A DNA stretch of 64,000 bases from Candidatus Limnocylindrales bacterium (GCA_035692005.1 DASSII010000136.1:3318-67317); one strand, 5' to 3'; counted from the stretch's first letter, positions 24,514-42,862 are shown. Notes: a model not told the origin generated them from the letters alone. Translations and numbers: made by a program.

Positions 24514-25424
24514 TTGATGTACGGCCGGAGCACGTCGCGGGCGAGCAGGAAGCCGCGCTTGATGAGCTCGTCGGTCTGCTCGAAGCCGCGGTCCTCGTGC
24601 TCGATGATGATGTCGCCGTCGTAGCCGGCGCGGTAGAGATCGGCGTGGAACCGGGCCCAGTCGACGTCGCCCAGACCGGGCAGCCGCGGGACCTGCCAGC
24701 CGATGCCGGCGGACAGCGTGCCGCGCTCATATAAGCCGTCCCGGTCGATGGTCAGGTCCTTCGCCTGGACGTGCAGGATGTGCGGGCCGAATTCCTTGAT
24801 GAAGCGCGACTGGTCGATCATCAGCCAGACGAGGTGGGATGGGTCGTAGTTGAGGCCGATCGTGCCGCCCCACTGCTCGAGGATGCGGCGCCACATGTAG
24901 GGCGACCACGCGATGTTGTGGCCCGCCGGCCATTCGTCGCGACTGAAGATCATCGGGCAGTTCTCGATGGTGATCCGCCGCCCGTGATCGTCGGCGAAGG
25001 CAACGATGTCCGGCCACACCTCGAGCGCCCGCGCCCAGTTCTCGTCCTGCGACAGCGCCGCGTCACCACCCATGAACGTGTTGACGAACGGGACGTCCAT
25101 CGCCTCGGCCGCCGTGATGACGTGGCGCAGGTGCCCGATGACCGTGTCGCGGTGGGCCGGGTCGGGGTGCAGCGGGTTCGGGTAGAACCCCAGCCCCGAG
25201 ATGTGCAGTCCCGCCCCGCGGATCTCCGCGGCCAGGTCGCGGCCGGCGTCGGCCGACAGGTTCGCGACGTCGATGTGCGATGTGCCGGCATAGCGGCGCG
25301 TCGGCCCGGTGGACCGCGGCCAGCAGGCGATCTCGATGCTCTCGAAGCCGTTCGCGGCGGTCCACGCCACGACCTCGTCGAGCGGCGTTTCGGGGAACGG
25401 GGCGGTCAGCAGGCCGAGTCTCAT
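24510..25424 (-). CDS. Sugar phosphate isomerase/epimerase (xylose isomerase-like TIM barrel)
   Basis: AP-endonuclease-2 / xylose-isomerase-like TIM-barrel sequence (ITIENCP..., DIIIEHED). Confidence 0.85.
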   Translation of the reverse strand: MRLGLLTAPFPETPLDEVVAWTAANGFESIEIACWPRSTGPTRRYAGTSHIDVANLSADAGRDLAAEIRGAGLHISGLGFYPNPLHPDPAHRDTVIGHLRHVITAAEAMDVPFVNTFMGGDAALSQDENWARALEVWPDIVAFADDHGRRITIENCPMIFSRDEWPAGHNIAWSPYMWRRILEQWGGTIGLNYDPSHLVWLMIDQSRFIKEFGPHILHVQAKDLTIDRDGLYERGTLSAGIGWQVPRLPGLGDVDWARFHADLYRAGYDGDIIIEHEDRGFEQTDELIKRGFLLARDVLRPYIK

Positions 25425-26772: not shown

Positions 26773-27807
26773 TCAGTCCGTGCGCGGCGGCGACGTGCTC
26801 TCGCGGACGACGAGCTCGGTCGCCAGTTCGACCCGCATCTGGGGTGGTTCCTCGCCACGCGCCAGGTTCAGCACGAGTTCCGCCGCCGCCTCGGCCATCT
26901 CGATCAGCGGCTGGCGAACGGTCGTCAGCGGCGGGCTGACCCAGCGGGCGATCGGCAGATCGTCGAACCCGACCACGCTGAGATCCTCCGGGATGTGAAG
27001 CCGTGCTTCGCGCGCCGCCTGATAGACCCCCAGGGCCTGGAGGTCGTTGCCGGTGATGATGGCCGTCGGACGGTCCCGGCGGGCCAGGAGGCGGCGCCCC
27101 GTCGCGATGCCTTCATCGACCTGGAAGGCGCCGTGGCTGACCAGGCTCGGATCGACCGGCACACCGGCCTCGTCCATGGCTGCCCGGAACCCGTCCACCC
27201 GGGCACGACTGCACAGGACGCCGGCGGGCCCGCCGATGACCCCGATCCGGTGGTGGCCCAGGCCGAGCAGGTGGCGCGTCGCCGTCAGGCCGCCATTCCA
27301 GTTCGTCGCCCCGATGGATGGCGTGCCGTGGAGTGGTTCTCCGGCCGGGTCGACGACCACGAACGGGATGCCCCGTCCCCGCAGCTGATCCCGCATCGTC
27401 TCGCTCAGATCAGAGAAGACGGCGATCACGCCCGTCGGTCGCCGGGCGATGGCGCCCTCGATCCAGCCGCGGCCCGGCGTCCGTCGGCCCTGCATCTCGG
27501 TGAGCACGACGGCCAGCTGGTGCCGGCCCGCCACGCGCTCGACACCGCGCACGATCTCGAGCGCCCACTCGCTCTCGAGCTCGTGGAAGATCAGCTCCAA
27601 CAGCGGCGCCCGACGCTTCGGCCCGACCGGCTTGGCGTAGCCGTACTTGCGGATGACCGCCTCGACGCGCCGCCTAGTCGCCGGCGCTACGTCAGCCCGG
27701 CCGTTGATCACCTTCGAGACGGTCGGCGCGGACACGCCCGCCTCCCCGGCGATGACGGCGATGGTCGTCCCGCCGCGCCCGTTGCGCCGACCCGACGTGG
27801 TAGCCAT
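26773..27807 (-). CDS. LacI-family transcriptional regulator
   Basis: HTH IAVIAGEAGVSAPTVSKVINGR plus a sugar-binding domain. ATG 27807 chosen; the upstream part of the 555-aa ORF is junk. Confidence 0.9.
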   Translation of the reverse strand: MATTSGRRNGRGGTTIAVIAGEAGVSAPTVSKVINGRADVAPATRRRVEAVIRKYGYAKPVGPKRRAPLLELIFHELESEWALEIVRGVERVAGRHQLAVVLTEMQGRRTPGRGWIEGAIARRPTGVIAVFSDLSETMRDQLRGRGIPFVVVDPAGEPLHGTPSIGATNWNGGLTATRHLLGLGHHRIGVIGGPAGVLCSRARVDGFRAAMDEAGVPVDPSLVSHGAFQVDEGIATGRRLLARRDRPTAIITGNDLQALGVYQAAREARLHIPEDLSVVGFDDLPIARWVSPPLTTVRQPLIEMAEAAAELVLNLARGEEPPQMRVELATELVVRESTSPPRTD

Positions 27808-27832
27808 GGCGGCATTGTAGCGCCCCGCGCAT

Positions 27833-27955
27833 CGAAAGTTTCGGTCTTCGCAACGGTGGCCTCCAGCGTTCGTGCCGATGGCCCTTGACGTTCGCGGAAT
27901 GCCGGACGTAGAGTCGGCACGACCGAAACAAGCGGTCGGGTATTCGCAACTTTCG
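27833..27955. promoter_or_regulatory. Divergent control region: two copies of CGAAAGTT(T/G)CG plus a TTGACG-N18-TAGAGT promoter-like element
   Basis: CGAAAGTTTCG at 27833-27843, and its near copy in inverse orientation (CGCAACTTTCG) at 27945-27955. TTGACG at 27885-27890 and TAGAGT at 27909-27914 face the SBP gene. Confidence 0.35.
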
Positions 27956-27979
27956 GAGACGGCTGGAGGAGCGACCCTG

Positions 27980-29308
27980 ATGACGATGTCTCGACGGCGG
28001 ATCGTCGCCTTGGCGGCGAGCGCCATCCTCGTATTCGGAGCATGTACCGGGACTGGCGCGTCGACCGCGCCGTCGACGGCACCCACCACCGCTGCCAGTG
28101 CGGAGCCATCGAAGGCGGCCGAGCCGGTCACCATCACCTGGTACCACATCCAGAACAACGACCCGGGCCTCAGCCTGTGGAAGACCCTGGCCGACGAGTA
28201 CACGGCGGCGCACCCCAACGTCACCATCGATATCCAGGTCAACGAGAACGAGGCGTTCAAGACCAAGCTGACGACCCTGCTCCAGCAGGGCGACATCCCC
28301 GACCTGTTCCAGACATGGGGCGGTGGCGGCCTCCGACAACAGGTCGAGGCCGGCCTGGTCAAGGACATCAGCGCCGATATCGCGCCCTGGAAGGGCGACA
28401 TCAACGCCGGCGCCCTCGGCATGTACGAGGTCGATGGCAAGAATTACGGCGTCCCGTTCGACCTCGGGCTGGTCGGGTTCTGGTACAACACGAAGACCTT
28501 CACGGATGCCGGCATCACCGCCGCGCCCGCGACCTGGGATGAGTTCCTCACGACGGTCAAGACCTTGAAGGACAAGGGGGTCACCCCGATCGCCCTGGCC
28601 GGCAAGGACACCTGGACCGGTGCCTTCTACTGGGCCTACCTCGCGGTGCGGAACTGCGGCCAGGCCGGCATGGACAAGGCCGTCGTCAGCGGCGACTGGT
28701 CCGATCCCTGCTTCGTCAAGGCCGGCAAGGACTTCAAGCAGCTCATCGACATGGAGCCATTCCAGAAGGGCTTCCTCGCCGCTCCGTGGGACGGCGCCGG
28801 CAGTGGCGCGGCAGCCATGGCGACCTACAACGGCGCCATCCAGCTGATGGGCCAATGGCTTCCCGGCACCGTCAACGCGAACTCGGGTGGCAATCGCGCC
28901 ATCGGCGAGGGCCTCGGCTGGTTCCCATTCCCGAGCGTGGCCGGCAGCCCCGGCGATCCGTTCGACGGGCTCGGCGGCGGCAACGGCTTCGCCGTCGGCA
29001 AGGATGCCCCGCCGGAGACGGTCGACTTCCTCCACTACCTCGTCAGCCTCGACGCCGCGAATCGATGGGGAGCGCTCAACTCGGGCATCCTGCCGACCAC
29101 CAACGGCTCCGAGCCATCGACCACCGACCCGATGCTGACCCTGGTGCTGGAGGGCCGGGCGAAGGCCAAGTTCGTCCAGCTCTACCTCGATCAGGCGACG
29201 ACGCCGGAACTCGGCGGCGCCATCAACGAAGCCGTCGCGACCCTGTACGCTGGGACCGGCACGCCGGAGTCGGTGGTCCAGGCCATCAGCGCCGCCGCCG
29301 CCCAGTAG
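27980..29308 (+). CDS. Carbohydrate ABC substrate-binding lipoprotein (CUT1, family 1 SBP)
   Basis: GGAGGA precedes ATG 27980. Lipobox ILVFGACTG. Extracellular solute-binding family 1 sequence. Confidence 0.9.
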   Translation: MTMSRRRIVALAASAILVFGACTGTGASTAPSTAPTTAASAEPSKAAEPVTITWYHIQNNDPGLSLWKTLADEYTAAHPNVTIDIQVNENEAFKTKLTTLLQQGDIPDLFQTWGGGGLRQQVEAGLVKDISADIAPWKGDINAGALGMYEVDGKNYGVPFDLGLVGFWYNTKTFTDAGITAAPATWDEFLTTVKTLKDKGVTPIALAGKDTWTGAFYWAYLAVRNCGQAGMDKAVVSGDWSDPCFVKAGKDFKQLIDMEPFQKGFLAAPWDGAGSGAAAMATYNGAIQLMGQWLPGTVNANSGGNRAIGEGLGWFPFPSVAGSPGDPFDGLGGGNGFAVGKDAPPETVDFLHYLVSLDAANRWGALNSGILPTTNGSEPSTTDPMLTLVLEGRAKAKFVQLYLDQATTPELGGAINEAVATLYAGTGTPESVVQAISAAAAQ

Positions 29309-29367
29309 CCAACCCCTGACCAAGCCGTGGATGGGCCGGCCCGACGCCGGCCCATCCGCATGACCGA

Positions 29368-30303
29368 GTGATCGACGTGGCGACTGCCGTTGGCTCCCGC
29401 TCCCGCACCGGTCGGAACCTGCGCGCCCTGGGTGTGCCGGCGCTGTTCATGCTCCCGGCGCTGGCGTTGTATGCCCTGTTCGTCCTGTTTCCGATCGTCC
29501 AGGCGGCGCGCTTCAGCCTGTTCGACTGGAACGGACTCGAGGCACTCGATCAGTTCGTGGGCCTGGCCAACTTCGAGCGGGCGTTGGCAGATCCGGTCTT
29601 CCTCGGCGCGGTCAGCCACAACGCCTTCATCGTCATCCTGTCGCTGCTCGTCCAGATCCCGTTCGCCCTCGGGCTGGCGCTCATGCTCAATCGCCAGTTT
29701 CGGGGGCGCGCCATCCTGCGACTGATCTTCTTCGCCCCGTATGTCATCGCCGAGGTCATCACCGCGATCGTCTGGAGCCTCCTCCTCCAGCCCAATGGCC
29801 TTGCGGAGCACCTGCTCAGCGCGATCGGGCTCGGGGAGGCCTACCAGCCGTGGCTGGCCGGCACGGACACCGTCCTCGTCGCCCTGTTCTTCATCATCAC
29901 CTGGAAGTACTTCGGCTTCCACATGATCCTGTTGCTCGCCGGCCTGCAGGGGATCCCGCGCGAGATCGAGGAAGCGGCCGCCATCGACGGCGCGTCGCGC
30001 TGGCAGGGGATCCGCTACGTCACCTTGCCCCTGCTCGGCCCGACCCTCCGGGTATCGGTCTTCCTGTCGATCATCGGCTCCCTCCAGCTGTTCGATCTGG
30101 TCTGGGTGACGACACGCGGCGGGCCGGTGAACGCCTCGAACACGATGGCGGTCTACATGTTCGACCGGGGCTTCGTGCGCTTCCAGTTCGGCTACGGGAG
30201 CGCCGTCGCGGTGATCCTGTTCCTCCTCTGCTTCGTGCTCGCCCTCGCCTATCAACGGTGGGTCCTGCGCCGCGACACGGAAGGAGCCACGACCTATGGC
30301 TGA
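29368..30303 (+). CDS. Carbohydrate ABC permease (MalF/UgpA-like)
   Basis: Six-TM CUT1 permease with the EAA-loop region (EIEEAAAIDGASRWQGIRYVTLPLL). Start is GTG 29368 or 29377. Confidence 0.85.
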   Translation: MIDVATAVGSRSRTGRNLRALGVPALFMLPALALYALFVLFPIVQAARFSLFDWNGLEALDQFVGLANFERALADPVFLGAVSHNAFIVILSLLVQIPFALGLALMLNRQFRGRAILRLIFFAPYVIAEVITAIVWSLLLQPNGLAEHLLSAIGLGEAYQPWLAGTDTVLVALFFIITWKYFGFHMILLLAGLQGIPREIEEAAAIDGASRWQGIRYVTLPLLGPTLRVSVFLSIIGSLQLFDLVWVTTRGGPVNASNTMAVYMFDRGFVRFQFGYGSAVAVILFLLCFVLALAYQRWVLRRDTEGATTYG

Positions 30304-31192
30304 GCCGACGACGCGGCGGGCGAGCGCGGTGGTGGCCCGTCGAACGGGTCCGGGCGCGAGCGTCCGCGCCCGGCGCCTGGCCACCACCGTCCTGCGCTCC
30401 GTCGTGTTGCTGGTCGTGAGCGCCGTGATCGTCGTCCCCGTCGTGTATGCCGCGCTCGGCGGCTTCCGGGACGCGCCGCAGCTCGCCGCGAATCCGGTCG
30501 GTCTCCCGGATCCCTGGGTCTGGACCAACTACACCGACTCGCTCATGTCGACGAGCTTCTGGTTGCAGCTCCGCAACAGCGCCGTGGTCGCCGGGATCAC
30601 CACGGTCGTCGTCGTCCTGTTCGCGGCGCTCGCAGCGTTCGTCATCGCCCGACGGGAGTTCCCGGGTCGCGAGTTCGCGTACACCGCATTCACCCTCGGC
30701 CTGCTCTTCCCGGCGACCGTCGCGATCCTGCCGCTGCTGATCCTCGTGCGGGACCTGGGGCTGCTCGACAACCCGCTCGGACTGGCGCTGCCCGAGGCGG
30801 CGTTCGGGTTGCCGCTGACGATCATCATCCTCCGGCCGTTCTTCCGGAGCATCCCGATGGAACTCGAGGACGCCGCCGCGATCGATGGCTGCGGGCCGCT
30901 CGGGTTCTTCTTCCGGATCCTGCTGCCGCTGTCGCGACCGGCCCTGGTCACGGTCGCCGTGCTCGCCATCGTGTCGAGCTGGAATCAGTTCCTCCTGCCG
31001 CTGGTGATGCTGTCGGATGCAGACACCTGGACGCTGCCGTTGGGCCTCACCAATTTCAGCACCCAGTACACGACCGACACCGCCCGCATCCTCGCCTACA
31101 CGACGCTGGCCCTCGTGCCGGCACTCGCCTTCTACGTCGTGGCTGAGCGCCAGCTGGTCGGCGGCCTGACGGCCGGGTCGGTCAAGGGATGA
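30296..31192 (+). CDS. Carbohydrate ABC permease (MalG/UgpE-like)
   Basis: EAA loop ELEDAAAIDGCGPLGFFFRILLPL. 8-nt overlap with the preceding permease. Confidence 0.85.
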   Translation: MAEPTTRRASAVVARRTGPGASVRARRLATTVLRSVVLLVVSAVIVVPVVYAALGGFRDAPQLAANPVGLPDPWVWTNYTDSLMSTSFWLQLRNSAVVAGITTVVVVLFAALAAFVIARREFPGREFAYTAFTLGLLFPATVAILPLLILVRDLGLLDNPLGLALPEAAFGLPLTIIILRPFFRSIPMELEDAAAIDGCGPLGFFFRILLPLSRPALVTVAVLAIVSSWNQFLLPLVMLSDADTWTLPLGLTNFSTQYTTDTARILAYTTLALVPALAFYVVAERQLVGGLTAGSVKG

Positions 31193-33552
31193 CCACGGAC
31201 CTCGCCATGTATCGCGATCCGGCCGCGCCGATCGATGCCCGGGTCGCCGACCTGCTCGGGCGGATGACCCGGACGGAGAAGGTCGCCCAGCTCGGGTCGT
31301 TCTGGGCGTTCGAGGTGGTCGGGGAGGACGGCCTCGACGAGGATCGCCTGGCGTCGCTGGCCGGCCACGGGATCGGGCACATCACCCGCCTCGCCGGCTC
31401 CACCAACCTGCGCCCGGTCGAGGTGGCCGAGACCGCCAACGCGATCCAACGCCAGCTCGTCGAGCGGACCCGGCTGGGCATCCCGGTCATCATCCACGAG
31501 GAGTGCCTGCACGGCCTCCTGGCCTGGGCAGCTCCCTGCTTCCAGCAGTCGATCGGCGCGGCCGCCACATTCGACCCCGAGGTCGTGACGGCGATGGCGG
31601 CGACGATCCGCCAGCGGATGCTCCTGACCGGAGCCCGGCACGCGCTGGCGCCGGTCCTCGACATCGCGCGCGACCCGCGCTGGGGGCGGATCGAAGAGAC
31701 CTACGGCGAGGATCCGTATCTTGCGACCGAGCTTGGCTGCGCCTACACCCGGGCCCTCCAGGGCGCGGACCTCGCGAACGGCGTCCTGGCCACGGCCAAG
31801 CACATCGTCGGCCACGGCCTGGCCGAGGGTGGACGCAACCAGGCCCCGGCACACATCGGCCCCCGCGAGCTCCGCGACGAGCAGCTCTTCCCGTTCGAGG
31901 CCGCGGTCCGCGACGCGGGGATCGCCAGCGTCATGCCCGCCTACTGCGAGGTCGATGGTCTGCCCTGCCACGCCTCTGCGGAGCTCCTGACCGGCATCCT
32001 CCGCGAGGAGTGGGGCTTCGACGGGATCGTCGCGTCGGATTACATGGGCGTGGAGATGCTCGCCACCGCCCACCACCTGACCCCCGATCTTGGCGAGGCC
32101 GCCCGGCTGGCCCTGCGCGCCGGCGTCGACGCCGAGCTGCCGCGGACCGTGGCGTTCGGGTCTCCGCTGGCGAACGGCCTGGACGTCGGCAGCGTCGACG
32201 AGAGCCTGCTCGACGCGGCCGTCGCCCGAGTGCTGCGCATGAAGTTCCGACTCGGCCTCTTCGAGCGGCCGTACGTCGAGGTCCCGACCGGGGCGCTGCT
32301 CGGGCAGCTCGCCGCGGCCGAGTCGGCGGCGGCCCGGACGCTGGCCGAGCGCTCCCTGGTCCTGCTCGAGAACGACGGGGTGCTGCCGCTCGGGGCCGAT
32401 CACCGCCGCATCGCGATCGTCGGACCCATCGCCGACAGCGCGCGGGATCTGCTGGGTGACTACAGCCACCTTGTCCATATGGAGACCCTCCAGGAGATGC
32501 GCACCGGCGTCGATGCACTCGGCGTCATCGGCGACGGACCGATCGTCGCCCCGGGCGACGAGCTGTCCGGGCGACGCACGATCCTCGACGCCGTTCGCGC
32601 GGCACTGACCGGAGCCGAGGTCGTCCACGCCCCGGGTACCGGCCTGACCTCGGGCACCGATGAGGAACTCGCGCGGGCGGTGGCCGTGGCCAGCGAGGCT
32701 GACGTCGCCATCGTCGTCCTCGGCGAGCGCTCGGGCCTGACCGACGACTCGACCACCGGCGAGTTCCGCGATCGGGTGGGCCTGGGGTTCCTGGGCCGGC
32801 AGCAGGAGTTGCTCGAGGCGGTCGTCGCGACCGGGACCCCGGTCGTGCTCGTCGTCGTCAGCGGTCGGCCGCTCGCCCTTCCCTGGGCCGCCGAGCACTG
32901 CGCTGCCGTGCTGCTTGCGTGGGTGCCCGGCGATGCGGGCCCGGACGCGATCGCGGACGTGCTGAGCGGGGCGGTCAACCCCGGTGGCAAGCTGCCCGTG
33001 GCCATGCCGCGCGACGTCGGCCAGATCCCACTGACGTACCGCCACCATCCCACCGGCGGCCGTTCGCACCCCAAGGGCGACTATGTCGACGCGCCGGTCA
33101 CGCCGCTCTGGCCGTTCGGCTTCGGTCGCTCGTACACGAGCTTCAGGCTCGACGCGCTGAGCGTCGATCGGACCGAGCTGGACACGACCGGGGACACGGT
33201 GACCATCCGGGTCGACGTCACCAACACCGGCATGGTCCCGGGCGACGAGGTCGTCCAGCTCTACATCCGCGATGAGGAGGCCAGCGTGGCCCGCCCGGTG
33301 CGCGAGCTGCGCGGCTTCCGGCGGGTGCAGCTCGAGCCCGGCCGATGCCGGACGGTCGCCTTCGTCCTCTCGACCGAGCAGTTCTCCTACGTCGGCGCGG
33401 ATCATCGCCGCGTCGTCGAGCCCGGGCGTGTCAGCGTGCAGGTCGGCTCCTCCTCCGTCGACCTGCCGCTGACCGCCGAGCTGCTGCTGCGGGGCCCGGT
33501 CGTCGAGCTCGCGGAGCGGCGGCACTACCTGACGCCCTCCACGATCGAGTGA
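31189..33552 (+). CDS. Glycoside hydrolase family 3 (beta-glucosidase-like) with C-terminal fibronectin-III-like domain
   Basis: GH3 N- and C-terminal domains (GFDGIVASDY catalytic Asp region, KHIVGHG). 787 aa. ATG 31189 overlaps the permease stop (ATGA). Confidence 0.9.
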   Translation: MTTDLAMYRDPAAPIDARVADLLGRMTRTEKVAQLGSFWAFEVVGEDGLDEDRLASLAGHGIGHITRLAGSTNLRPVEVAETANAIQRQLVERTRLGIPVIIHEECLHGLLAWAAPCFQQSIGAAATFDPEVVTAMAATIRQRMLLTGARHALAPVLDIARDPRWGRIEETYGEDPYLATELGCAYTRALQGADLANGVLATAKHIVGHGLAEGGRNQAPAHIGPRELRDEQLFPFEAAVRDAGIASVMPAYCEVDGLPCHASAELLTGILREEWGFDGIVASDYMGVEMLATAHHLTPDLGEAARLALRAGVDAELPRTVAFGSPLANGLDVGSVDESLLDAAVARVLRMKFRLGLFERPYVEVPTGALLGQLAAAESAAARTLAERSLVLLENDGVLPLGADHRRIAIVGPIADSARDLLGDYSHLVHMETLQEMRTGVDALGVIGDGPIVAPGDELSGRRTILDAVRAALTGAEVVHAPGTGLTSGTDEELARAVAVASEADVAIVVLGERSGLTDDSTTGEFRDRVGLGFLGRQQELLEAVVATGTPVVLVVVSGRPLALPWAAEHCAAVLLAWVPGDAGPDAIADVLSGAVNPGGKLPVAMPRDVGQIPLTYRHHPTGGRSHPKGDYVDAPVTPLWPFGFGRSYTSFRLDALSVDRTELDTTGDTVTIRVDVTNTGMVPGDEVVQLYIRDEEASVARPVRELRGFRRVQLEPGRCRTVAFVLSTEQFSYVGADHRRVVEPGRVSVQVGSSSVDLPLTAELLLRGPVVELAERRHYLTPSTIE

Positions 33553-33597: not shown

Positions 33598-34797
33598 TCA
33601 GGCCTGCGTCACCACGCGGTCGCTGAAGTCGCCGGAGACCTCATCCTTGAGGATCAGCTTCTGGCGCCCGTCCGGCAGGAGCTCGCGCTTGATGACCACC
33701 TGCCCCTCGTACCGTTCCGGCTCGGACGTGATCCTGGCGGTCTCGCCGCCACGCCAATCGAGCACGACCGGCTCCCAGCTGCGCGAGCTCGCTGATCGAT
33801 AGCACGCGTCCATGACCGCATTCACGACGTAGCCGTCGTAGAGCGTCTCCTGCGGCGTCCCCCCGCCGTCGAGCGCACGGAACATGTCACTGAACATGTC
33901 GACGTAGCCGAGTTCGGCCACCTCGTCGCCGACCGGGAACAGCCAGCCGGCGGCCGTTTCGGCCTTCTCCGCGACGTAGCCGCCACCCCCGCCGGCGGTG
34001 AACATCTCGAACCCGGTCCGCAGGAAGTGGTTCAGCCAGATGGTGCCGTGGGTGCCGGCCACCTCGTCGCGCAGGTCCATCCCGCCGCGGAACGTCCAGC
34101 TGACCTCGAACTGGCCGATCGCGCCCGACTCGAAGCGGATGAGCGCGATCGCGTTGTCCTCATCGGCGATGGGGTGGACCAGCGTGTCCGTATGGCACAT
34201 CACCTCGACCGGCCGATTGCCCTTGCCCACGAAGTTGCGGATGATCTCGATGCAGTGGCAGCCGAGATCGACGATGGCGCCACCGCCGGTCAGTCGGCCG
34301 TCCCAGAACCAGGCCGAGTGCGGCCCGGGGTGGGTCTCACGGGAGCGGACCCAGGTCACGTCGCCGATCGCTCCGGCCTGGACCGAGGCGACGGCCTTGA
34401 GCGTCTTGGGCGTGTAGCACAGGTCCTCGAGGTAGCCGCCGAACACGCCGGCCGCCTCGACCACGTCGAGCATCCGCTTGGCCTCTTCGGCTGTCCGCCC
34501 CAGCGGCTTGGTGCACAGGACGGCCTTGCCCGCGCGGGCGGCCAGGCCGACGGCCTCCTCGTGGAGGAAGTTGGGCAGGCCCACGACCACGACGTCGGTA
34601 TCGGGGTGCTCGACCGCGGCGGCCAGATCGGTCGTCGACTGCCCGATTCCCCACCGTTCCCGGAACGCGTTCCCGCGCTCGGCACTGCGCGAGTACACCA
34701 CCTTGACGGCGTCGCGGCTGCGCTGGCCGTGCAGGGTCATCGTGTAGAAGTCGGCGATGAGCCCGGTGCCGAGCATCGAGATCCGGTGGCCTTCCAT
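33598..34797 (-). CDS. Gfo/Idh/MocA-family oxidoreductase
   Basis: [18 protein letters not shown] Rossmann N-terminus and TKPLG motif. ATG 34797 chosen; the upstream 83 codons are Pro/Arg-rich read-through. Confidence 0.85.
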
Positions 34798-34846
34798 GTC
34801 GTCCTCCTGCGCTGTGATGGTCCGGGATGGCGGGTCGTGGCGGGGA

Positions 34847-35917
34847 TCAGCCGCCGCCGGCGGTCGAGGCGGGCATGCCGGCGGCGGCCCGGCCACGGAC
34901 GAGGTCGCGACCGGCGACGAGCGCGCGCAGCTTGGCGGTGGTCGCCCATCGCGCGGTCTGGCTGAAGCCGCAGTCGGGCACCAGCCCCAAGCGGGCCGTC
35001 GGGACACCGGCGGCCAGCACCGCGTCGATCCGGTCGGCCACCTCATCGGGGCTTTCGAGGTGGTAGTTCTTCACGTCGACCACGCCGACCGCGACGTCCC
35101 GGCCGGCCGCGGCGATGTCGCCGAGCAGCTCGACCTCGGCCATCTCGCGGTTGGCGTATTCGAGCACGAGCTCGTCGACCCGGAAGCGGAGGACGGCGTC
35201 GAGCACCGGGCGGTAGGTCCGCCGGGCCAACGGCCGGCCGAGGTAGTTCCCGAAGCACAGGTGCACCCCGAGCCGGACCCGTCCGACGATCGGTTCGACC
35301 GCGGCGTTGAACAGGGCCGCGAAGTCGCTCGGCGCGTCGGGGTGGATGGCCGGCGACGGGTCGTCGATCTGGATCCACGTCGCGCCGGCGGCGACCAGCC
35401 CTTCGAGCTCGGCACGCAGGATCGGGACGAAGGCCTCGGCGGCCCCATCGCGTTCCCGATAGACCTCGCCGGGTCCCGTGCGCAGGCGCCCGGACAGGGT
35501 GTACGGGCCCGGCAGGGTCACCTTCAACGGCCGTCGCGTCCGGGTCACGGCGTAGCGGAACTCCTCGACGACGCCGAGCCCGTCCGGTGCGGCGATCGGC
35601 TCGGTCACCTCGAACCGATGCTGCTGATCGTGCCCCCCGGCGCCGAGCCGGCGGTCGGACGGCAGTGGGCGGACGCCGCTGAGGTGGCGGTAGAACTCGG
35701 CCGTGAAGAAGCCGGCCCGGCGCATCTCGCCGTCGCTGACAACGTCGATGCCGGCGTCCTCCTGGTCACGCAGCGCCATGTCGACCGCATCGTCGAGCAT
35801 CTCCGCCAGATCGACCGGACCGAACTCGCCGCGTTCCGCTGCCGCGATCCCCGCCACGAACCACGACGGGCGCGCGTGCGACCCCACGACGCTGGTGCGC
35901 AGGCCGTCCGTTGTCAT
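34847..35917 (-). CDS. Cobalamin-independent methionine synthase (MetE C-terminal domain)-like protein
   Basis: 356 aa. N-terminal [11 protein letters not shown] and overall Meth_synt_2-like sequence ([10 protein letters not shown]..., VHLCFGNY). Its actual activity in this context is unknown. Confidence 0.75.
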
Positions 35918-35921
35918 GCGC

Positions 35922-36890
35922 TTACTCCTCCTTCGAGCCGAACGTCAACCACCGACCGGGGTTAGCGATGAACAGCCGACGGCGGATGCCGGCATCCAGC
36001 CCACGCGCCTCCATCAGGCGAGCGAAGCCATCGAGCAACCAGGTCAGGCCGGGACGACCGCCGTAGACCGCGTAGTAGCCGCGCCGCGCGGCGTCCATGC
36101 CGAGCACGATCCGATCGAGCATCCCATCGGCGGCGGCCCACTCGAGGATCTGGAGCGTGCCGTTCGGCCGGTCTCCCCAGCGGAATGAGCCGTCCAGTTC
36201 GGCCGTCGCTCCGGTCGCCCAGATCGCCCGCTGGTAGCCGCGGTCGACGATCTTGTCGACGTGCGAGACGGCGACGTGGGCCAGGTCGACGCCCCGGTCG
36301 GCCAGGAGCGCCAGCTGCTCGAGCGCCCCGCTGCCGGCTTCGCAGTGGGTCAGGATCGGCGACCCGGTCCGCCGGTGGGCGATGGCGGCCGCTTCGAATA
36401 CCCGTGCGTCGCGCGGCGATGGCCCACCCTCCGAACCGGCGACCTTGATGACGCCCGCCCGGACCGACGTCCGACGGACCAGCGGGCCGGAGTAGTCGTT
36501 GGCGTCGATGCCGAGGTCGATGTCGGCGATGAACAGCTCGGCCAGCTCGTCGATCGACACTCGGTGCGACCAGTGGGCAGGCCCGTAGTAGCGGTCGTGA
36601 TGGAGGCCGGTCGGGGCGACCACGCGGACCCCGCTGCGGCTCGACAGCTCGGCCAGCTTGTCGGCGTTCCGGCCCGCGTCGCACGGCATCGCGTCGACCA
36701 GCGCGCCGAGGCCGAGCGCGGACGCCGCGCTCACCTCCTCGACCGCCGCGTCGACATCGGACAGGTCGAAGGTCGGGTCCATCGCGACCGGTCGGCCGCC
36801 GTCGATGATGAGGTGCTCGTGGGCATAGGTGACGCCGAGGGCCGCCGGGTCGATGTCGCCGAGGACCGTGCGGACGAAGGGGTCGGTCAC
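35922..36890 (-). CDS. Phosphotriesterase-homology (PTE/PHP) amidohydrolase, probable lactonase
   Basis: GVTYAHEHLIID metal-binding motif at the N-terminus and a 322-aa TIM-barrel amidohydrolase. ATG 36890 overlaps the upstream stop. Confidence 0.85.
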   Translation of the reverse strand: MTDPFVRTVLGDIDPAALGVTYAHEHLIIDGGRPVAMDPTFDLSDVDAAVEEVSAASALGLGALVDAMPCDAGRNADKLAELSSRSGVRVVAPTGLHHDRYYGPAHWSHRVSIDELAELFIADIDLGIDANDYSGPLVRRTSVRAGVIKVAGSEGGPSPRDARVFEAAAIAHRRTGSPILTHCEAGSGALEQLALLADRGVDLAHVAVSHVDKIVDRGYQRAIWATGATAELDGSFRWGDRPNGTLQILEWAAADGMLDRIVLGMDAARRGYYAVYGGRPGLTWLLDGFARLMEARGLDAGIRRRLFIANPGRWLTFGSKEE

Positions 36891-38233
36891 GAGGCCATCG
36901 CCCGGTCCGTGTCAGGGTGGTCGACGATGGCCCCGGCCGCACGCAACCTCCGACGGAGGTCGGCCACGTCGATGTCGCGTGGGTCGCGCCGGGTGGCCAC
37001 CGCCATCGCCGCCGCGCTGCCGGCAGCCTCGCCCATCGCCATGCACTGGGCCATGCTCCGGACGGAGGCGTGCGCCTCGTGGGTGGCGCTGAAGCAGCGG
37101 CCGGCCACCAGGACGTTGCGCGCATCGCGCACGACCAGGCTGCGATAGGGGATGCCGACCGCCGAACCGGCCGGCAGGTAGCGCCACACGGTGTCGGGGC
37201 CAGTGCCGTGGTCCTCGATCGGCGCCCCGCACAGCCCGATCACGTCGTCGAACCCGCGGGCGGCCAGCACGTCGTCGCCCGTCAGCCGGTACTCCCCGTA
37301 CACCCGACGGGTCTCGCGTACGCCGATCTGGGTCGCCAGGCCGACGAGCGACGCGTGCTCGTAGCCCGGCACCCGATCGCGCAGGAAGCGCACGTACTCG
37401 AGCGCCTGGCGCCGGCCCGCCATCTCGGACTCGGTCAGGTACCACGGGTCGGTGGTGTCGACGACGCGGCCGTCGGGCGCGCGCCGGACTGCGTCCAGGC
37501 GGGTCATGACCGTGGCCGTCACGCCGTCGATGGGGGTGGCGTGATCGCTGCCCTCCCGGCGGGGGAGGTCGTACGACCCCGAGGCGGCGGCCTCGGCCAT
37601 GCGCTCGTGGAGGTCCGCCCGTGTCACCGCTGCGCGCCGGGCGGCGTCGACCCCGGCGACCCGGAAGGTCGTGGTCAGGCTCTGGGCCGGGCCGAGCTCG
37701 CCGGCCGTCTCGTACCCGAAGCCGGCGAAATGACACAGGTCCGCGTCGCCGGATGCATCGATGAACGTCGTCGCGCGCACGCGCGCGAGACCGGCCCGGG
37801 TGGCGACCACGATCGATCGGACCCGGCCGTCCTCCACGTCGACAGCCTGGACCATCGCGTGCAGCAGGACCCGTGCTCCGGCACCGACGACGAGGTCCTC
37901 CCAGACGACCTTGAGGTGGTCCGCCAGGTAGGTCACCCCGGTGCCGGCTCCGTACGTGTTGGGTCGCTCGAGCACCCGGCCGATGCGGCGCAACCCGGCG
38001 ACGACCGCATCGCCGATGCCGCCCACGACCTTGACCGGTCGCTCGCCGGGGGTCCAGAAGCCATAGAACGTGTCGAGCACGGCCGTGCTCGTGCCGCCGA
38101 GGAACGGCAGTCGGTCGACGAGCAGCACGCGCGCACCGGCCCGAGCCGCCGCGATCGCCGCCGTCGACCCGGCCGAGCCCGCCCCGACGACGCACACGTC
38201 GACCTCGGCCAGCAGCGGGGCGTCGATGGTCAT
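36887..38233 (-). CDS. FAD-dependent oxidoreductase (GG-containing FAD_oxidored type)
   Basis: VCVVGAGSAGSTAAIAAARAGARVLLVDRLPFLGGT. ATG 38233 overlaps the SDR stop (ATGA). Confidence 0.8.
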   Translation of the reverse strand: MTIDAPLLAEVDVCVVGAGSAGSTAAIAAARAGARVLLVDRLPFLGGTSTAVLDTFYGFWTPGERPVKVVGGIGDAVVAGLRRIGRVLERPNTYGAGTGVTYLADHLKVVWEDLVVGAGARVLLHAMVQAVDVEDGRVRSIVVATRAGLARVRATTFIDASGDADLCHFAGFGYETAGELGPAQSLTTTFRVAGVDAARRAAVTRADLHERMAEAAASGSYDLPRREGSDHATPIDGVTATVMTRLDAVRRAPDGRVVDTTDPWYLTESEMAGRRQALEYVRFLRDRVPGYEHASLVGLATQIGVRETRRVYGEYRLTGDDVLAARGFDDVIGLCGAPIEDHGTGPDTVWRYLPAGSAVGIPYRSLVVRDARNVLVAGRCFSATHEAHASVRSMAQCMAMGEAAGSAAAMAVATRRDPRDIDVADLRRRLRAAGAIVDHPDTDRAMAS

Positions 38234-39069
38234 CGGTCCGCCTCGGGAGCTGGGCCTTCGATGCGGCCGGCGTCCGCCGGCCCGACCGACGTCACCGACC
38301 AGCCCCCGTCGACCTTGAGCAGCTGACCGGTCACCGCTCGTGACTCGTCGGACAGGAAGAACAGCGCCGCCCGGGCGACCTCGTCGGGGTCGAGCAACGG
38401 GCCGGCGAGCGGTTGCTTGCGACCGGCGAAGGCCAGGATCGACGCGTCGCCGGCGGCGCGAGCGGCCATCGGGGTGGCGGTCAGTGACGGGGCCACGAGG
38501 TTGACCCGGATCCCGTCGCGCGCGTACGTCGAGGCCATCGAGGTCATGAGCGCGGTCAGGGCCCCCTTCGCCGCGGCGTAGGCGTGCGTGCCGAACACGT
38601 CCGGGACCGGATCGGACGCGGTCACGCTGCCGATCAGCAGGATCGACCCACGCGTGCCGGCGTCGGTTCGCGTCTGCTCCAGCATCTGCCGCACCACGGC
38701 GGCACAGACGAGCACCTGCGTGCGCAGGTTGAGCGCGGCCGTGGCCTCCCACGCCGGTCCGGTCAGCGTGTGGACCGGCCCGTCACCGAAGCGGCGGCCG
38801 CTGCCGCCCGCGACCGACACGAGACCGTCGATCCGGCCGAACCGCTGGCGCGCCTCGTGGATCACCCGCTCCACGGCCGATTCGTCGGTCAGGTCCGCCG
38901 CTGCCCAGCCGGCGTCGGGCAGCCGCTCGGCGAGGTCGCGGGCGTGCTCGGCCGTGCGCGACACCACGAACACCGCCGCCCCCTCGTCCGCCGCGCGCCG
39001 GGCGGTGGCCGCGCCGATCCCGGTCGAGCCCGTCACGAGGATGACCCGCTCGGCGAGCCGCCCGGTCAC
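38230..39069 (-). CDS. SDR-family oxidoreductase
   Basis: ILVTGSTGIGAATA cofactor motif and YAAAK catalytic motif. Confidence 0.9.
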   Translation of the reverse strand: MTGRLAERVILVTGSTGIGAATARRAADEGAAVFVVSRTAEHARDLAERLPDAGWAAADLTDESAVERVIHEARQRFGRIDGLVSVAGGSGRRFGDGPVHTLTGPAWEATAALNLRTQVLVCAAVVRQMLEQTRTDAGTRGSILLIGSVTASDPVPDVFGTHAYAAAKGALTALMTSMASTYARDGIRVNLVAPSLTATPMAARAAGDASILAFAGRKQPLAGPLLDPDEVARAALFFLSDESRAVTGQLLKVDGGWSVTSVGPADAGRIEGPAPEADR

Positions 39070-40022
39070 GTCGGATCCGCCGGAGCGATCGCGCGGGCTG
39101 CGGCGGCATCGGTCACCAGGATCCGCACCAGGCCGCTGCGCAGCGCGCCCCGGATCGCATCCGCCTTGGCGGCGCCGGCCGCGACGGCCACGACGCGGGG
39201 GACGGCGCGCAGGCCGTCCACCGAGATCCCGACTGCGCGCGCCGCCAACCCCGTGGCCGGGAACCGGCCGTCGGCGGTGACCGGGTGGAGCAGGACGTCG
39301 CCGACGATGCCGCCTCCGACGAGCTCGTCGACGACGTCGGCCGGCAGTGCGCCGGTCCGGACCAGCGACGACCCGTCAGCCAGGCCCGCTCCCGCGCGGA
39401 ACGCGCCGATCCCGACCAGGGCCAGGGTCAGCCGCCCGAACATCGCCACCGTCGGCGCCACGTCGGGCTGGCGCAGCAGCGCATCGCGCACGTCCGCTCG
39501 ATCGACGAACGCCGGCGCGAACAACGGATGATGGATCGCCCCCCAGCGTTCGGCCAGCAGCCGGGCGAGCTCGGCCGGATCGTGGGCGCGGTCGAACCCC
39601 ACCGCGTTGCCGGCCAGCTGGACGATCGCCAGCGACGGTTCGCGGCGCGCCGGCATCGCGGCGACGACCTCGCCGAGCGTGGTGCCCCAGGCGATACCGA
39701 CCACGTCGTCGGGCGCGATCAGGCCGTCGACGATCGAGGCGGCCGCGCGCGCGACGTCGGTCATCGACGACCCGCCGGCGACGACGCACAGGTCGAGCCC
39801 GTAGTGGGTCTCGATCGCCGCTGCGAGTGAGCGGTCGGCCGGGGCCGCGTCGCGATACTCGATCCGCACCAGGCCGTCGTCGATCGCCTGGCTGATCAGC
39901 CGCGCGACCCGGAAGCGCGAGATGCCCAGCGCCGCGGCGATGTCGACCTTGCTCTGCTGGCGGTCGAAATAGAGCCGCGCAGCCTGGGTCATCAGGGTGC
40001 TGACCGGCGGCGGGTCGGTCAT
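39066..40022 (-). CDS. SorC/DeoR-type sugar-binding transcriptional regulator
   Basis: N-terminal HTH (AARLYFDRQQSKVDIAAALGISRFRVARLI) plus a SorC-type sugar-phosphate-binding domain. Confidence 0.85.
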   Translation of the reverse strand: MTDPPPVSTLMTQAARLYFDRQQSKVDIAAALGISRFRVARLISQAIDDGLVRIEYRDAAPADRSLAAAIETHYGLDLCVVAGGSSMTDVARAAASIVDGLIAPDDVVGIAWGTTLGEVVAAMPARREPSLAIVQLAGNAVGFDRAHDPAELARLLAERWGAIHHPLFAPAFVDRADVRDALLRQPDVAPTVAMFGRLTLALVGIGAFRAGAGLADGSSLVRTGALPADVVDELVGGGIVGDVLLHPVTADGRFPATGLAARAVGISVDGLRAVPRVVAVAAGAAKADAIRGALRSGLVRILVTDAAAARAIAPADPT

Positions 40023-40672
40023 CGCTCGGCACGCACGCTGGCGATCAGTGCCCGGCGTTCGTCGACCGAGGCACGCGTCAGCGAACTCCCGATGCCCACC
40101 GCCACGCAGCCCGCGTCGAGGAACGCCCGCGCGTTGCCCGCGTCGATGCCGCCGGTCGCGACGGTCTCGATGGCCGGGAACGGGCCGCGCAGTTCACGGA
40201 CGTGGCTCGGTCCCAGACTCGACGCGGGAAACAGCTTGACGAAGGTCGCGCCCGCTGCCCACGCGCCGGCGATCTCGGTCGGGCTGTACGCACCGGGGAT
40301 GAACGGCGTCCCGGCGCGGATGGATCGCTCGAGCAGGTCGTGGTCGAGCAGCGGGCTGACCGCGAAGGCCGCACCCGCGTCGATGGCAGCATCGAGCGCC
40401 ACCGAGGACAGCACCGTACCGGCCCCGATGGCGACGTCGCCGTGGCCGGTCGCGTCGAGCCGGCGACGGACTGCGCGCAGGTCGTCGGCGGCGGTCGGCG
40501 CATCGAAGGTGATCTCCAGGAGGCCGACCCCGGCGCCGACGAGACCATCGACCAGGTCGAGCAGCTGGCTCCTCGGGCTGACGCGGCGCAGGACCGCGAT
40601 CAGGCGCTGGCCACGGACCCGATCGGCGAACGCCGAACGTCGAAGGGGGTCGCCGGACACGGACTGGCGCAT
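40019..40672 (-). CDS. eda: 2-dehydro-3-deoxy-phosphogluconate / 4-hydroxy-2-oxoglutarate aldolase family
   Basis: 217 aa from ATG 40672 with a KDPG-aldolase-like sequence (LIAVLR, LEITFD, catalytic-Lys context FVKLFPA). Confidence 0.85.
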   Translation of the reverse strand: MRQSVSGDPLRRSAFADRVRGQRLIAVLRRVSPRSQLLDLVDGLVGAGVGLLEITFDAPTAADDLRAVRRRLDATGHGDVAIGAGTVLSSVALDAAIDAGAAFAVSPLLDHDLLERSIRAGTPFIPGAYSPTEIAGAWAAGATFVKLFPASSLGPSHVRELRGPFPAIETVATGGIDAGNARAFLDAGCVAVGIGSSLTRASVDERRALIASVRAER

Positions 40673-40763
40673 GGTCCGATGGTAGCCGCTGCCCATCTGA
40701 GCGGCAACTGCTCGAATGAGCGAGGGACGACGGGCGTCGGCCTGCGCTAGCATCTCTGGCCTC

Positions 40764-42230
40764 ATGGAAGCTCTGCCTGTCCCCGTCCTCGATGTGGCCA
40801 GTTCGGGCCGCGACCTGTTACTCGAGATGGAGCTGCGTCGCGGTTTCATGCGACGCGATCTGCGCTGTGCGCTGCGCGAGGCGATCCAGGAGGGTCGGCT
40901 CGAAGCCGGGACACGGTTGCCCTCATCGCGCCGGCTGGCGAGCGACCTGGAGGTGTCGCGCGGGGTCGTCGCCGACACGTACGACCAGCTCGCCGCCGAG
41001 GGATATCTTCGCGTCGAGCCCCGCCGCGCGCCGGTCGTCATCGACGTGGCCGAGGCGCTCCGGCCGGACGACGCTGACGACGCGCTGCCGCCGTCACGTG
41101 CTCCCGGGGACGTCGGCCACCAGGCGCTGCCGATCGATTTCACGGCCACGGCGCCGGACCTGGAACTCTTCCCGCGGCGGGCCTGGCTGCGCGCGATGGA
41201 GCGCGCCATCCGTGACACGCCCAACGAGGTGCTCGACTACGGCGACCACCGTGGCCGCCCGGAGCTGCGCGAGGCGCTCCGCGAGTACCTGTCGCGAGTG
41301 CGTGGCGTGCGCACGAGCGCCCAGCGCATCGTGATCACCGGCGGGTTCACCCAGGCGCTCGACCTGCTGGTGGCGGTGCTGCGCGAGCGCGGTGCCCGCT
41401 CGATCGGCTTCGAGACACCATCGAACATCAACGCGTGGGCCACCGTTCAGGCGGCCGGGCTCGACATGGTCGCGCTGCCGGTCGACGCGGACGGCCTGCG
41501 AACCGCGGACCTCGAGTCGGTCGACGTCGCAGCGATCGTCGTCACGCCGGCCCATCAGTTCCCGACCGGTGCCGTGCTCACGCCGGCTCGTCGCGCCGAG
41601 CTCGTGGCCTGGGCGGCGGCCCGCCCCGGTCGGCTCATCATCGAGGACGACTACGACGCCGAGTTCCGCTATGACCGCCTCGGTGTCGGGGCGGTCCAGG
41701 GCCTCGATCCTGCCCGCGTCGTCCACGTCGGCACGGCTTCCAAGACGTTCGCGCCGGGCATCCGCCTGGGCTGGATGAGCGTCCCGACGGATCTGCTGGA
41801 CGCTGTGACGGCGGCCAAGGCCATCGCCGACTCCGGCTCGCCGGCGCTCGAACAGCTGGCCCTCGCCGATCTGCTCGCCAGTGGCGAGTACGACCGACAC
41901 ATCGCTCGTGCTCGACAGGTCTACCGGCACCGGCGCGACGCCCTGGTGGCGGCGCTCGGTCGGTGGCTTCCGGCGCTGCCGGTCGAGGGCATCGCCGCCG
42001 GCCTGCACGTGCTCGTGCGGCTGCCCGCCGGTAGCGACGACGTGGCCATCGCGGCAGCCGCGGCCGAGCACGGGATCGGCGTGAAGCCGCTGTCGCCGAT
42101 GGCGCTCGACGGCGATCGCCGCGCCCGCGGCCTCGTGCTCGGCTATGGACGACTCAGCCCCGACGGGATCGAGGCGTCGGTTCGGGCCCTGGCCGCGACG
42201 ATGCCGATCGCTCAGGCCTCGTCCTCGTAG
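40764..42230 (+). CDS. MocR-type regulator (GntR wHTH fused to a fold-type I aminotransferase-like domain)
   Basis: wHTH LPSSRRLASDLEVSRGVVADTYDQLAAEGYL followed by an aminotransferase class I/II-like domain (ASKTFAPGIRLGW). The start could be 40716, 40764 or a later ATG. Confidence 0.85.
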   Translation: MEALPVPVLDVASSGRDLLLEMELRRGFMRRDLRCALREAIQEGRLEAGTRLPSSRRLASDLEVSRGVVADTYDQLAAEGYLRVEPRRAPVVIDVAEALRPDDADDALPPSRAPGDVGHQALPIDFTATAPDLELFPRRAWLRAMERAIRDTPNEVLDYGDHRGRPELREALREYLSRVRGVRTSAQRIVITGGFTQALDLLVAVLRERGARSIGFETPSNINAWATVQAAGLDMVALPVDADGLRTADLESVDVAAIVVTPAHQFPTGAVLTPARRAELVAWAAARPGRLIIEDDYDAEFRYDRLGVGAVQGLDPARVVHVGTASKTFAPGIRLGWMSVPTDLLDAVTAAKAIADSGSPALEQLALADLLASGEYDRHIARARQVYRHRRDALVAALGRWLPALPVEGIAAGLHVLVRLPAGSDDVAIAAAAAEHGIGVKPLSPMALDGDRRARGLVLGYGRLSPDGIEASVRALAATMPIAQASSS

Positions 42231-42631
42231 TCCCACGCCCGGACGATGCCAGGCTCGATCCGGATGACGGCGCCGCGCGCATACGAGGCGACCATCCGCT
42301 CAGCGGCCTCCGGGCCGTCGTAGCGCAGCGCCGTCCGGCGCAGCACCTCGTAGAAGTCGTCCCGGGTCACGGTCGCCTCGCCGCGCAGCTCGAGGCCCTT
42401 GTACGGCCAGACCGAATTGGCCACGACGACCGTCACCCGCGGGTCGCGCCGGACATGGGCGACCTTGCCGCCCTCCGCGTCCGGGACCCAGATGTCGATG
42501 CCGCCCTCGTGCCATTCGAACCACACTGGCGAGAGCATGATCGAGTCGTCGCGCCGGCGGGTCGCCAGCACCGCGATGAGCGGTTGTTCGAGCAGGTCGC
42601 CCAGGTCCTCGGGCCGCAGGTTCGTTCGCAT
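42212..42631 (-). CDS. Pyridoxamine 5'-phosphate oxidase-like (PPOX-class, possibly F420-dependent) protein
   Basis: 139 aa from ATG 42631 (GGAGG upstream). Split-barrel FMN/F420-binding-like sequence (IAVLATRRRDDSIMLSPVWF...). Its 3' end overlaps the MocR 3' end by 19 nt. Confidence 0.75.
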   Translation of the reverse strand: MRTNLRPEDLGDLLEQPLIAVLATRRRDDSIMLSPVWFEWHEGGIDIWVPDAEGGKVAHVRRDPRVTVVVANSVWPYKGLELRGEATVTRDDFYEVLRRTALRYDGPEAAERMVASYARGAVIRIEPGIVRAWDYEDEA

Positions 42632-42862
42632 CCGCTGGTACCTCCGGGCTCGTGAGCGCGCTGGCATCGGCCGACGGACCGGTGCGGTCCGGCCCGTTGA
42701 CGCCGTCGCGTCGCGCAGTCTATGCTCCGCGTACCCCGACCGGTCCCGCGCAGCGGCAGCGATTCCGCGCGCGTACCCGCTCGGCCCCATGCGACCCGGA
42801 CCCCGGCCATCGGCCGACATGTCCGTTCCGCCCCTCCCTCACCCGCAGGTGACCCCGACCAG

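Follow-up and report, generated by a model that had tools for sequence, protein, structure and literature searches.

Several described systems touch on the locus reported here. In the oxidise-eliminate-reduce systems for levoglucosan (LgdA/B/C) and for 3-keto- and C-glycosides (DgpA/B/C), a Gfo/Idh/MocA dehydrogenase is combined with a TIM-barrel enzyme that removes a group and with a reductase. Core methionine synthases MesA to MesD consist of a single C-terminal barrel of the MetE type and lack the folate domain; one of them, MesD, is a folate-independent enzyme that was crystallized with zinc and selenomethionine (PDB entry 3rpd) (PMC7857596). For MesD the methyl donor has yet to be found, and orphan homologues are numerous in marine and soil bacteria (PMC7857596, PMC12478193). 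NagS of Streptomyces (SCO4393), which is related to the etherase MurQ, β-eliminates the 3-hydroxyl group of N-acetylglucosamine (GlcNAc) 6-phosphate (PMC12680351). Here we analyze a seven-gene operon at positions 33598–40672 of a 64,000-nucleotide stretch of DNA from a Candidatus Limnocylindrales bacterium (GCA_035692005.1 DASSII010000136.1:3318-67317; the window). From first to last gene it encodes an aldolase (Eda), a SorC-type regulator, a short-chain dehydrogenase/reductase (SDR), an oxidoreductase dependent on flavin adenine dinucleotide (FAD), a hydrolase of the phosphotriesterase (PTE) family, a single-barrel MetE-like protein and a Gfo/Idh/MocA dehydrogenase (Gfo) (Table 1). We conclude that this operon belongs to a real, conserved and uncharacterized system, a variant sugar-phosphate pathway that is marked by a methionine-synthase-like enzyme.

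The closest solved structure to the MetE-like protein (PF01717, 1.8e-25) is MesD (3rpd; 6.5e-29, 104 bits), and both its single-barrel architecture without a folate domain and its zinc and homocysteine residues are those of MesA to MesD. In E. coli MetE, zinc is held by His641, Cys643, Glu665 and Cys726, and the amino-acid end of homocysteine is bound by a serine, a glutamate and an aspartate (Ser433, Glu484 and Asp599 in E. coli; Ser22, Glu73 and Asp188 in 3RPD) (PMC7857596). When these roles were transferred to 101 homologues sharing 40–100% identity, the zinc ligands H219, C221, E253 and C316 proved invariant, as did E64 and D185 of the homocysteine site, and S13 was kept in 100 of the 101 sequences. 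Based on these retained residues we infer that the protein may still bind zinc and homocysteine (or methionine) and perform thiolate alkyl transfer on a pathway intermediate. Several properties set it apart from known methionine synthases. With 356 residues it lacks the two barrels of full-length MetE (TIGR01371; 41 bits against a cut-off of 930), and its 104 bits to 3rpd compare with a published MesD threshold of 390 bits to ACIAD3523 (PMC7857596). Like MesD with its partner MesX (PMC7857596), it has tightly linked redox-type partners, but MesX (DUF1852, PF08908) had no match in the genome, in a search in which PF08908 matched no control genome either, and none in the loci examined. It further differs from MesD by its sugar-enzyme partners, its patchy distribution and its setting in a catabolic operon.

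In the genome, which is 87% complete, the MetE-like gene is the only one that matches PF01717. Neither a partner gene for Meth_synt_1, the N-terminal domain that binds folate, nor a Met_synt_B12 domain was found there, and the same holds for LuxS; S-adenosylhomocysteine hydrolase is present. Two genes encode a homocysteine S-methyltransferase domain (G000:C70:17038-17916 and G000:C123:1-834; L101 and L102), of which one is apparently solitary and the other is truncated by a contig end. B12-binding_2 domains occur on other contigs of the genome, and together these genes may represent a split cobalamin-dependent methionine synthase. Four to five or more paralogues of the MetE-like type occur in some Chloroflexota genomes (G347, G104, G095, G013, G203, G395), a number that may point to a family of homocysteine alkyltransferases, each specific for its substrate. 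Another single-barrel clade, 41–44% identical to the MetE-like protein of the window (L087, L089 and L094–L096, at positions of about 5000–15500), adjoins genes for citrate synthase, PrpF, a fused aconitase and a class-III aminotransferase, and has the same zinc and homocysteine residues.

A sequence-only reading of the window had found no obvious place for the MetE-like protein in a known oxidative sugar route, yet this protein turned out to be the most constant member of a conserved gene set. MetE-like proteins with 71–90% identity are encoded at 80 genome loci, nearly all in metagenome-assembled genomes (MAGs) of Candidatus Limnocylindria or other Chloroflexota, and soil metagenomes from three or more studies contain near-identical DNA. 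Contexts were rebuilt by calling of open reading frames and by tblastn, and were counted for the 51 loci in which the MetE-like gene is flanked by 5 kb or more on each side. Its commonest neighbors are Gfo (42 of 51), PTE (41) and SDR (40), followed by a xylose-isomerase-like barrel (34), a second Gfo/Idh/MocA protein termed Gfo2 (33), a SIS-domain protein (25) and DeoC (21). FAD (18), Eda (15), a family GH3 glycosidase (12) and SorC (11) are less frequent. The set is thus conserved well outside this genome, and the arrangement is not a chance juxtaposition.

Divergent loci tell the same story. A distant set of 20 regions included nine clade-A loci with MetE-like proteins of 42–67% identity; eight of them had enough flank to be counted. 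Gfo and a SIS protein of the PRK02947 subfamily were found in all eight, a ROK kinase in seven, SDR in five, and PTE or a hydrolase of the metallo-β-lactamase (MBL) fold likewise in five. Gfo is the tightest partner, since copies 59–68% identical to it stand beside MetE-like genes that are only 42–57% identical. Gene order is shuffled among metagenome loci: Gfo-ROK-FAD-SIS-MBL-MetE-like-SDR in L114 and L118, Gfo-SIS-SDR-MetE-like-PTE-Eda in L115, and Eda-FAD-MetE-like-PTE in L163, with the FAD enzyme at 52–57% identity in diverged loci. The sequence-only reading had asked whether PTE-like lactonases are also found elsewhere together with the MetE-like and FAD proteins; PTE-like hydrolases are, in close relatives as well as in these shuffled loci. 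By contrast, each of these partners was present in at most one of ten loci of other MetE-like clades, and in a maximum-likelihood tree the Gfo-linked MetE-like sequences group as a single superclade. The constant core consists of the MetE-like protein, Gfo, SDR, PTE (elsewhere MBL), a NagS/MurQ-type SIS protein and a ROK kinase, and is accompanied by a CUT2 importer; FAD, SorC and Eda are accessories. That the partners stay together despite shuffling and divergence is our chief evidence for a functional link. Across a wider sample of 401 Chloroflexota genomes, whose tallies include the unpublished genomes G227, G038 and G628 although no individual statement depends on these three, only 6 of 23 other genomes of the same family had a MetE-like match at E ≤ 1e-20, so that the distribution is patchy. 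Genome-level sampling covered Chloroflexota; the labels Verrucomicrobiales and Rokubacteria attached to some sequences are depositor names only. In full-text searches no paper came up that connects MetE-like genes with PTE and Gfo, and none that names UPF0309 or PRK02947.

In the window, the seven minus-strand, co-directional genes lie at the positions given to them by the sequence-only reading and belong to the families named there, all seven proteins exceeding the Pfam gathering score. None of them reaches an NCBIfam equivalog cut-off, and no curated model of a characterized pathway was matched. The genes are one translationally coupled operon, as had been claimed from four ATGA junctions. 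All four junctions are indeed 4-nt overlaps of start and stop codons, but only two read ATGA on the coding strand (Eda/SorC, 40019–40022; SDR/FAD, 38230–38233), while the other two read GTGA (SorC/SDR, 39066–39069; FAD/PTE, 36887–36890). The MetE-like gene follows PTE after 4 nt, with a ribosome-binding site (GGAGGAG) inside the 3' end of PTE, and Gfo follows after 46 nt with the site AGGAGGA. A 6-bp hairpin is contained in the 45-nt spacer between Gfo and the convergent GH3 gene. A consensus scan of the operon, in a window of 70–75% G+C, revealed neither a σ70-like promoter nor a convincing internal terminator.

The extent of the system is not that of the seven genes. In L002, L006 and other related loci, Gfo2, the xylose-isomerase-like barrel, DeoC, the SIS protein and the CUT2 importer come directly after Gfo without a change of strand, and this gene content matches that of a further minus-strand operon of the window at 15135–26611. 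Synteny in relatives thus indicates that the functional unit reaches into that operon, which we regard as the second half of the same system on the strength of these sequence comparisons. It adds a ROK kinase, a GntR/HutC regulator and NagA (Table 1). An operator sequence 5' of this second operon, GTCTAGAC, has no copy upstream of the operon at 33598–40672.

The best solved match of the SIS protein is SCO4393 (NagS; 5e-28, 101.7 bits); like NagS it falls into the PRK02947 subfamily, and its gene has those for NagA and a ROK kinase as neighbors (cf. PMC12680351). It is, however, only a distant homologue of NagS. Orthologues of NagS within the Streptomycetaceae are at least 58.7% identical to SCO4393, whereas homologues of about 26–36% identity from outside this family have no or negligible activity on GlcNAc 6-phosphate (PMC12680351). 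Because distant homologues behave in this way, the substrate of the SIS protein studied here is probably different from GlcNAc 6-phosphate. As judged by its relatives, it is a candidate for the elimination or dehydration step for which the seven-gene operon offers no enzyme.

PTE is probably a (phospho)sugar lactonase, a function that had been suggested from the window alone and that agrees with its nearest relatives. It matches PF02126 at 5.2e-44, and its best PDB matches, 3msr (8e-40) and 3pnz (1e-33), are both characterized phospho-sugar lactonases; the best NCBIfam model is the phospho-furanose lactonase NF045706 (156.8 bits against a cut-off of 630). With Lmo2620 (3pnz) and MS53_0025 (3msr/3ovg) it shares the fold, the HxH/Lys/His/His/Asp ligands and an aligned stretch DxxRxxYY...G..PGL. 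Of the binuclear-metal ligands, H24, H26, H182 and D266 occur in all 63 homologues, K149 and H210 in 62. The genomic context is different: MetE-like, Gfo and FAD genes surround PTE here, without phosphotransferase-system or pentose-phosphate genes. In other lineages an MBL-fold hydrolase, which weakly resembles the L-ascorbate-6-phosphate lactonase UlaG, replaces PTE or joins it. Displacement of one hydrolase family by another argues for a step in which a lactone or ester of a phosphorylated compound would be hydrolyzed. In L035 (7725–9932) the FAD oxidoreductase and PTE share one open frame of 736 codons, an apparent fusion, and in L058 the FAD frame ends after 54 codons; both stand on MAG contigs, and assembly indels are as likely an explanation as true fusion or decay.

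Taking these data together, we tentatively favor a model, without rating it as probable outright, in which soil Chloroflexota break down a substituted sugar by a larger conserved system, of which the operon is one half, and the MetE-like protein transfers the substituent to homocysteine. Gene content, linkage and residue conservation are observed; the individual steps we infer. The sugar would be imported by the CUT2 system and phosphorylated by the ROK kinase. Gfo might then oxidize a ring hydroxyl and thereby activate the substituent, which the MetE-like protein would move onto the zinc-bound homocysteine thiolate; in the simplest case the substituent would be a methyl group and the product methionine. 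SDR and FAD enzymes could adjust the redox state, and PTE might open an oxidized, phosphorylated lactone or ester intermediate. β-Elimination of the SIS type followed by cleavage by Eda (or DeoC) would yield pyruvate or acetaldehyde together with triose phosphate, and SorC may sense a phosphorylated intermediate. The occurrence of several MetE-like paralogues in some Chloroflexota genomes fits with substrate-specific alkyl donors.

A number of points weigh against this model. Loss of an O-methyl group as methanol via oxidation and β-elimination requires no MetE-like enzyme, and stoichiometric use of homocysteine in a route of carbon catabolism is costly. Conservation of the homocysteine residues is common to every MetE-like clade examined and by itself does not tie the protein to a sugar pathway. 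The seven-gene operon contains neither a kinase nor a dehydratase, and these roles are assigned to the neighboring operon by synteny only. Finally, the public runs that contain near-identical DNA have no RNA on record. A literature lead to pinitol demethylation was also followed, and no matching genes were found.

A route resembling the Entner-Doudoroff pathway but built from non-orthologous parts is rather unlikely. In this route Gfo would oxidize C1 of a sugar 6-phosphate or an N-acetyl-amino-sugar 6-phosphate, PTE or MBL would open the phospho-lactone, and the SIS protein of the NagS type, aided by NagA in the case of the acetamido form, would dehydrate or deaminate the phospho-aldonate to a 2-keto-3-deoxy-6-phospho acid for cleavage by Eda; the MetE-like, SDR and FAD proteins would serve a side branch. 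The substrate could be GlcNAc or an oxidized form of it from oxidatively cleaved chitin. As in the Entner-Doudoroff module, a lactonase-type hydrolase, an Eda-type aldolase and a phosphosugar-type regulator stand in one operon, PTE is nearest to phospho-sugar lactonases, its MBL alternative resembles UlaG, and the linked operon supplies NagA and a ROK kinase. 6-Phosphogluconate is a tight ligand and an inhibitor of NagS (PMC12680351), and the enamine or imine formed by NagS and NagA would hydrolyze to a 2-keto-3-deoxy product. Eda and SorC are also in line with the phosphorylated intermediates that the sequence-only reading had envisaged. The aldolase matches PF01081 (1.2e-35; 123 bits against a cut-off of 27.8) and PDB aldolases for 2-keto-3-deoxy-6-phosphogluconate (KDPG) at about 1e-31, and stays just below the eda model TIGR01182 (150.9 bits; cut-off 156.05). 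SorC carries an N-terminal DNA-binding region in front of its SorC/DeoR sugar-binding domain (PF04198, 1.9e-50, residues 65–312), and its best NCBIfam models, Bacillus DeoR (1.2e-41) and LsrR (1.6e-17), are below their cut-offs.

However, the backbone proposed in the sequence-only reading, a lactone-forming Gfo coupled to Eda, does not coincide with what is conserved. Conservation is lowest for Eda, SorC and NagA, the first two being found in under a third of the related loci, and minimal sets of ROK-Gfo-SIS-SDR-MetE-like do without an aldolase. The seven genes include no dehydratase of the Edd/IlvD type, and the lactonase belongs to another superfamily than that of the Entner-Doudoroff module. 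Moreover, the closest solved or curated relatives of Gfo are dehydrogenases for inositol and for C3 of sugars rather than for C1. Among NCBIfam models it comes closest to IolG (1.5e-32) and levoglucosan dehydrogenase (1e-31), and scores remain below the equivalog cut-offs for IolG (112.8 against 355), levoglucosan dehydrogenase (110 against 650) and the xylose 1-dehydrogenase Gfo6 (67 against 350); PDB matches include 6nor, 6a3f, 6jw6 and 2glx. From these relationships, lactone formation by Gfo is not established. The Entner-Doudoroff-like route also leaves the most constant protein, the MetE-like one, without a role.

The combination of Gfo/Idh/MocA dehydrogenases with a TIM barrel and a reductase recalls the oxidise-eliminate-reduce systems. 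Gfo2, which matches levoglucosan dehydrogenase at 4.8e-53, adjoins the xylose-isomerase-like barrel in the second operon, but no equivalog cut-off of these systems was reached, and Gfo of the seven-gene operon is paired with a zinc/thiolate barrel of the MetE type instead of a xylose-isomerase-like one. In a further reading, which we consider unlikely, the MetE-like protein and Gfo would add a fifth type to the methionine synthase systems that need neither folate nor cobalamin. The donor would arise when an imported methylated sugar (or cyclitol or amino sugar) is oxidized with NAD, the methyl group would pass directly to zinc-bound homocysteine, and the demethylated skeleton would be burnt via lactonase, SIS protein and aldolase.

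It seems improbable that the MetE-like protein cleaves a homocysteine thioether sugar similar to S-ribosylhomocysteine. Gfo would make a keto-sugar and zinc would stabilize the leaving homocysteine thiolate, such that the two together would do the work of LuxS in an NAD-dependent manner and recover homocysteine as well as the sugar carbon. The intact zinc and homocysteine site, the tight pairing of the MetE-like gene with Gfo, and the lack of a LuxS match in the genome are consistent with this idea. The binding protein of the CUT2 importer (about 21635–22894) is similar to proteins that bind furanoses and ribose, and a SorC protein with similarity to LsrR plus a DeoC-family aldolase are reminiscent of autoinducer 2 processing. 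On the other hand, the genome encodes S-adenosylhomocysteine hydrolase, so that S-ribosylhomocysteine of its own is not expected, and the SIS protein, NagA and the lactonase would remain unexplained. We know of no environmental pool of homocysteine thioether sugars. Least probable of all is that the MetE-like protein is a plain cobalamin-independent methionine synthase carried in a sugar operon with no mechanistic link to it: its status as the only PF01717 protein, its full set of methionine-synthase residues and the lack of a Met_synt_B12 domain would fit, but its linkage to Gfo, SDR, SIS and hydrolase genes outlasts shuffling and divergence to 42–57% identity, and its accessory distribution (6 of 23 genomes of the family) together with other candidates for methionine synthesis (the homocysteine S-methyltransferase-domain and B12-binding-domain genes) argues against a housekeeping role.

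SDR reached no equivalog model. The FAD enzyme matches PF12831 over its full length (2.7e-109). An AlphaFold model of it computed from an alignment of 27 sequences had a pLDDT (predicted local distance difference test score) of 83.9, whereas that from the single sequence (pLDDT 38) was unusable. Structure searches with the former returned only generic two-domain flavoproteins: Foldseek matches had TM scores of 0.4–0.47, and the best hits of a VIA search (Z of up to 21) were FixC/EtfX-type proteins and geranylgeranyl reductases. Comparison with the ESM Atlas added nothing beyond the families already assigned.

Our study contributes four new elements: the link to the neighboring operon, the conservation of the homocysteine site, the connection to NagS, and the separation of a xyloside module from the system. 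The locus is a well-delimited and widely conserved case, in abundant soil Chloroflexota, of a MetE-like barrel in fixed association with a dehydrogenase and with enzymes acting on sugar phosphates. About six proteins plus one binding protein make up a testable set, and the outcome would be either a route for stripping substituents from sugars or a supply of methyl groups for methionine, new in either case. Three orphan groups, namely COG1735 hydrolases from outside Mycoplasma, distant NagS-like SIS proteins and PF12831 flavoproteins, also find natural substrates at this locus.

Table 1. Genes of the two operons and of the modules next to them (positions in the window).
Feature	Position	Strand	Length (aa)	Family or match
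Seven-gene operon
KDPG/KHG (Eda-type) class I aldolase, first gene	40019–40672	-	217	PF01081
SorC/DeoR-type regulator with sugar(-phosphate)-binding domain	39066–40022	-	318	PF04198
SDR	38230–39069	-	279	PF13561, PF00106
FAD-dependent oxidoreductase	36887–38233	-	448	PF12831
PTE, binuclear-metal hydrolase (COG1735)	35922–36890	-	322	PF02126
Single-barrel MetE-like zinc protein	34847–35917	-	356	PF01717 (Meth_synt_2)
Gfo, NAD(P)-dependent dehydrogenase, last gene	33598–34800	-	400	PF01408, PF22725, PF02894
Second operon
Gfo2	25421–26611	-		levoglucosan dehydrogenase, 4.8e-53
Xylose-isomerase-like TIM barrel	24510–25424	-		PF01261
DeoC	23758–24513	-		above NCBIfam deoC cut-off
NagS/MurQ-type SIS protein	about 22899–23762	-		PRK02947, 251.7 bits (cut-off 135)
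CUT2 ABC importer	about 17964–22894	-		
ROK kinase	about 17029–17967	-		
GntR/HutC regulator	16289–17032	-		
NagA	15135–16292	-		above NCBIfam nagA cut-off
GH3 block
LacI regulator	about 26779–27870	-		74% identical to LacI of L011
CUT1 binding protein	27872–29308			
Two permeases	29368–31192			
GH3 β-xylosidase-like enzyme	31189–33552			β-xylosidase 7zb3, 4e-222
Divergent neighbor and its paired gene
PdxR-type MocR regulator	40716–42230	+		NF052282, 396.6 bits (cut-off 320)
PNPOx-fold protein	42212–42820			

The two halves of the system are divided in the window by a LacI/CUT1/GH3 block at 26779–33552. This block was considered as a feeder of the pathway and set aside, as it has its own LacI regulator and is found in only 12 of the 51 related loci, where its position varies and where it sometimes carries a GH51 arabinofuranosidase. 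From its gene content we read it as an independent, self-regulated module for xylo-oligosaccharides. Upstream of the seven-gene operon, the divergent MocR-type gene reaches the PdxR equivalog cut-off, so that its interpretation as a rhizopine-type regulator was rejected; it is paired with a PNPOx-fold gene and lies outside the system.

Only 43 nt (40673–40715) separate the starts of the aldolase gene and of the divergent PdxR-type gene. No σ70-like promoter was found in this spacer, which contains an inverted repeat, GCCGCT-N9-AGCGGC, that may serve as an operator. In 30 of 53 related loci (e.g. L013:6332-7627 and L008) a NagC/Mlc-like ROK regulator is encoded between the halves of the system; it is absent from the window, where SorC and GntR/HutC are the sole regulators of the two halves.

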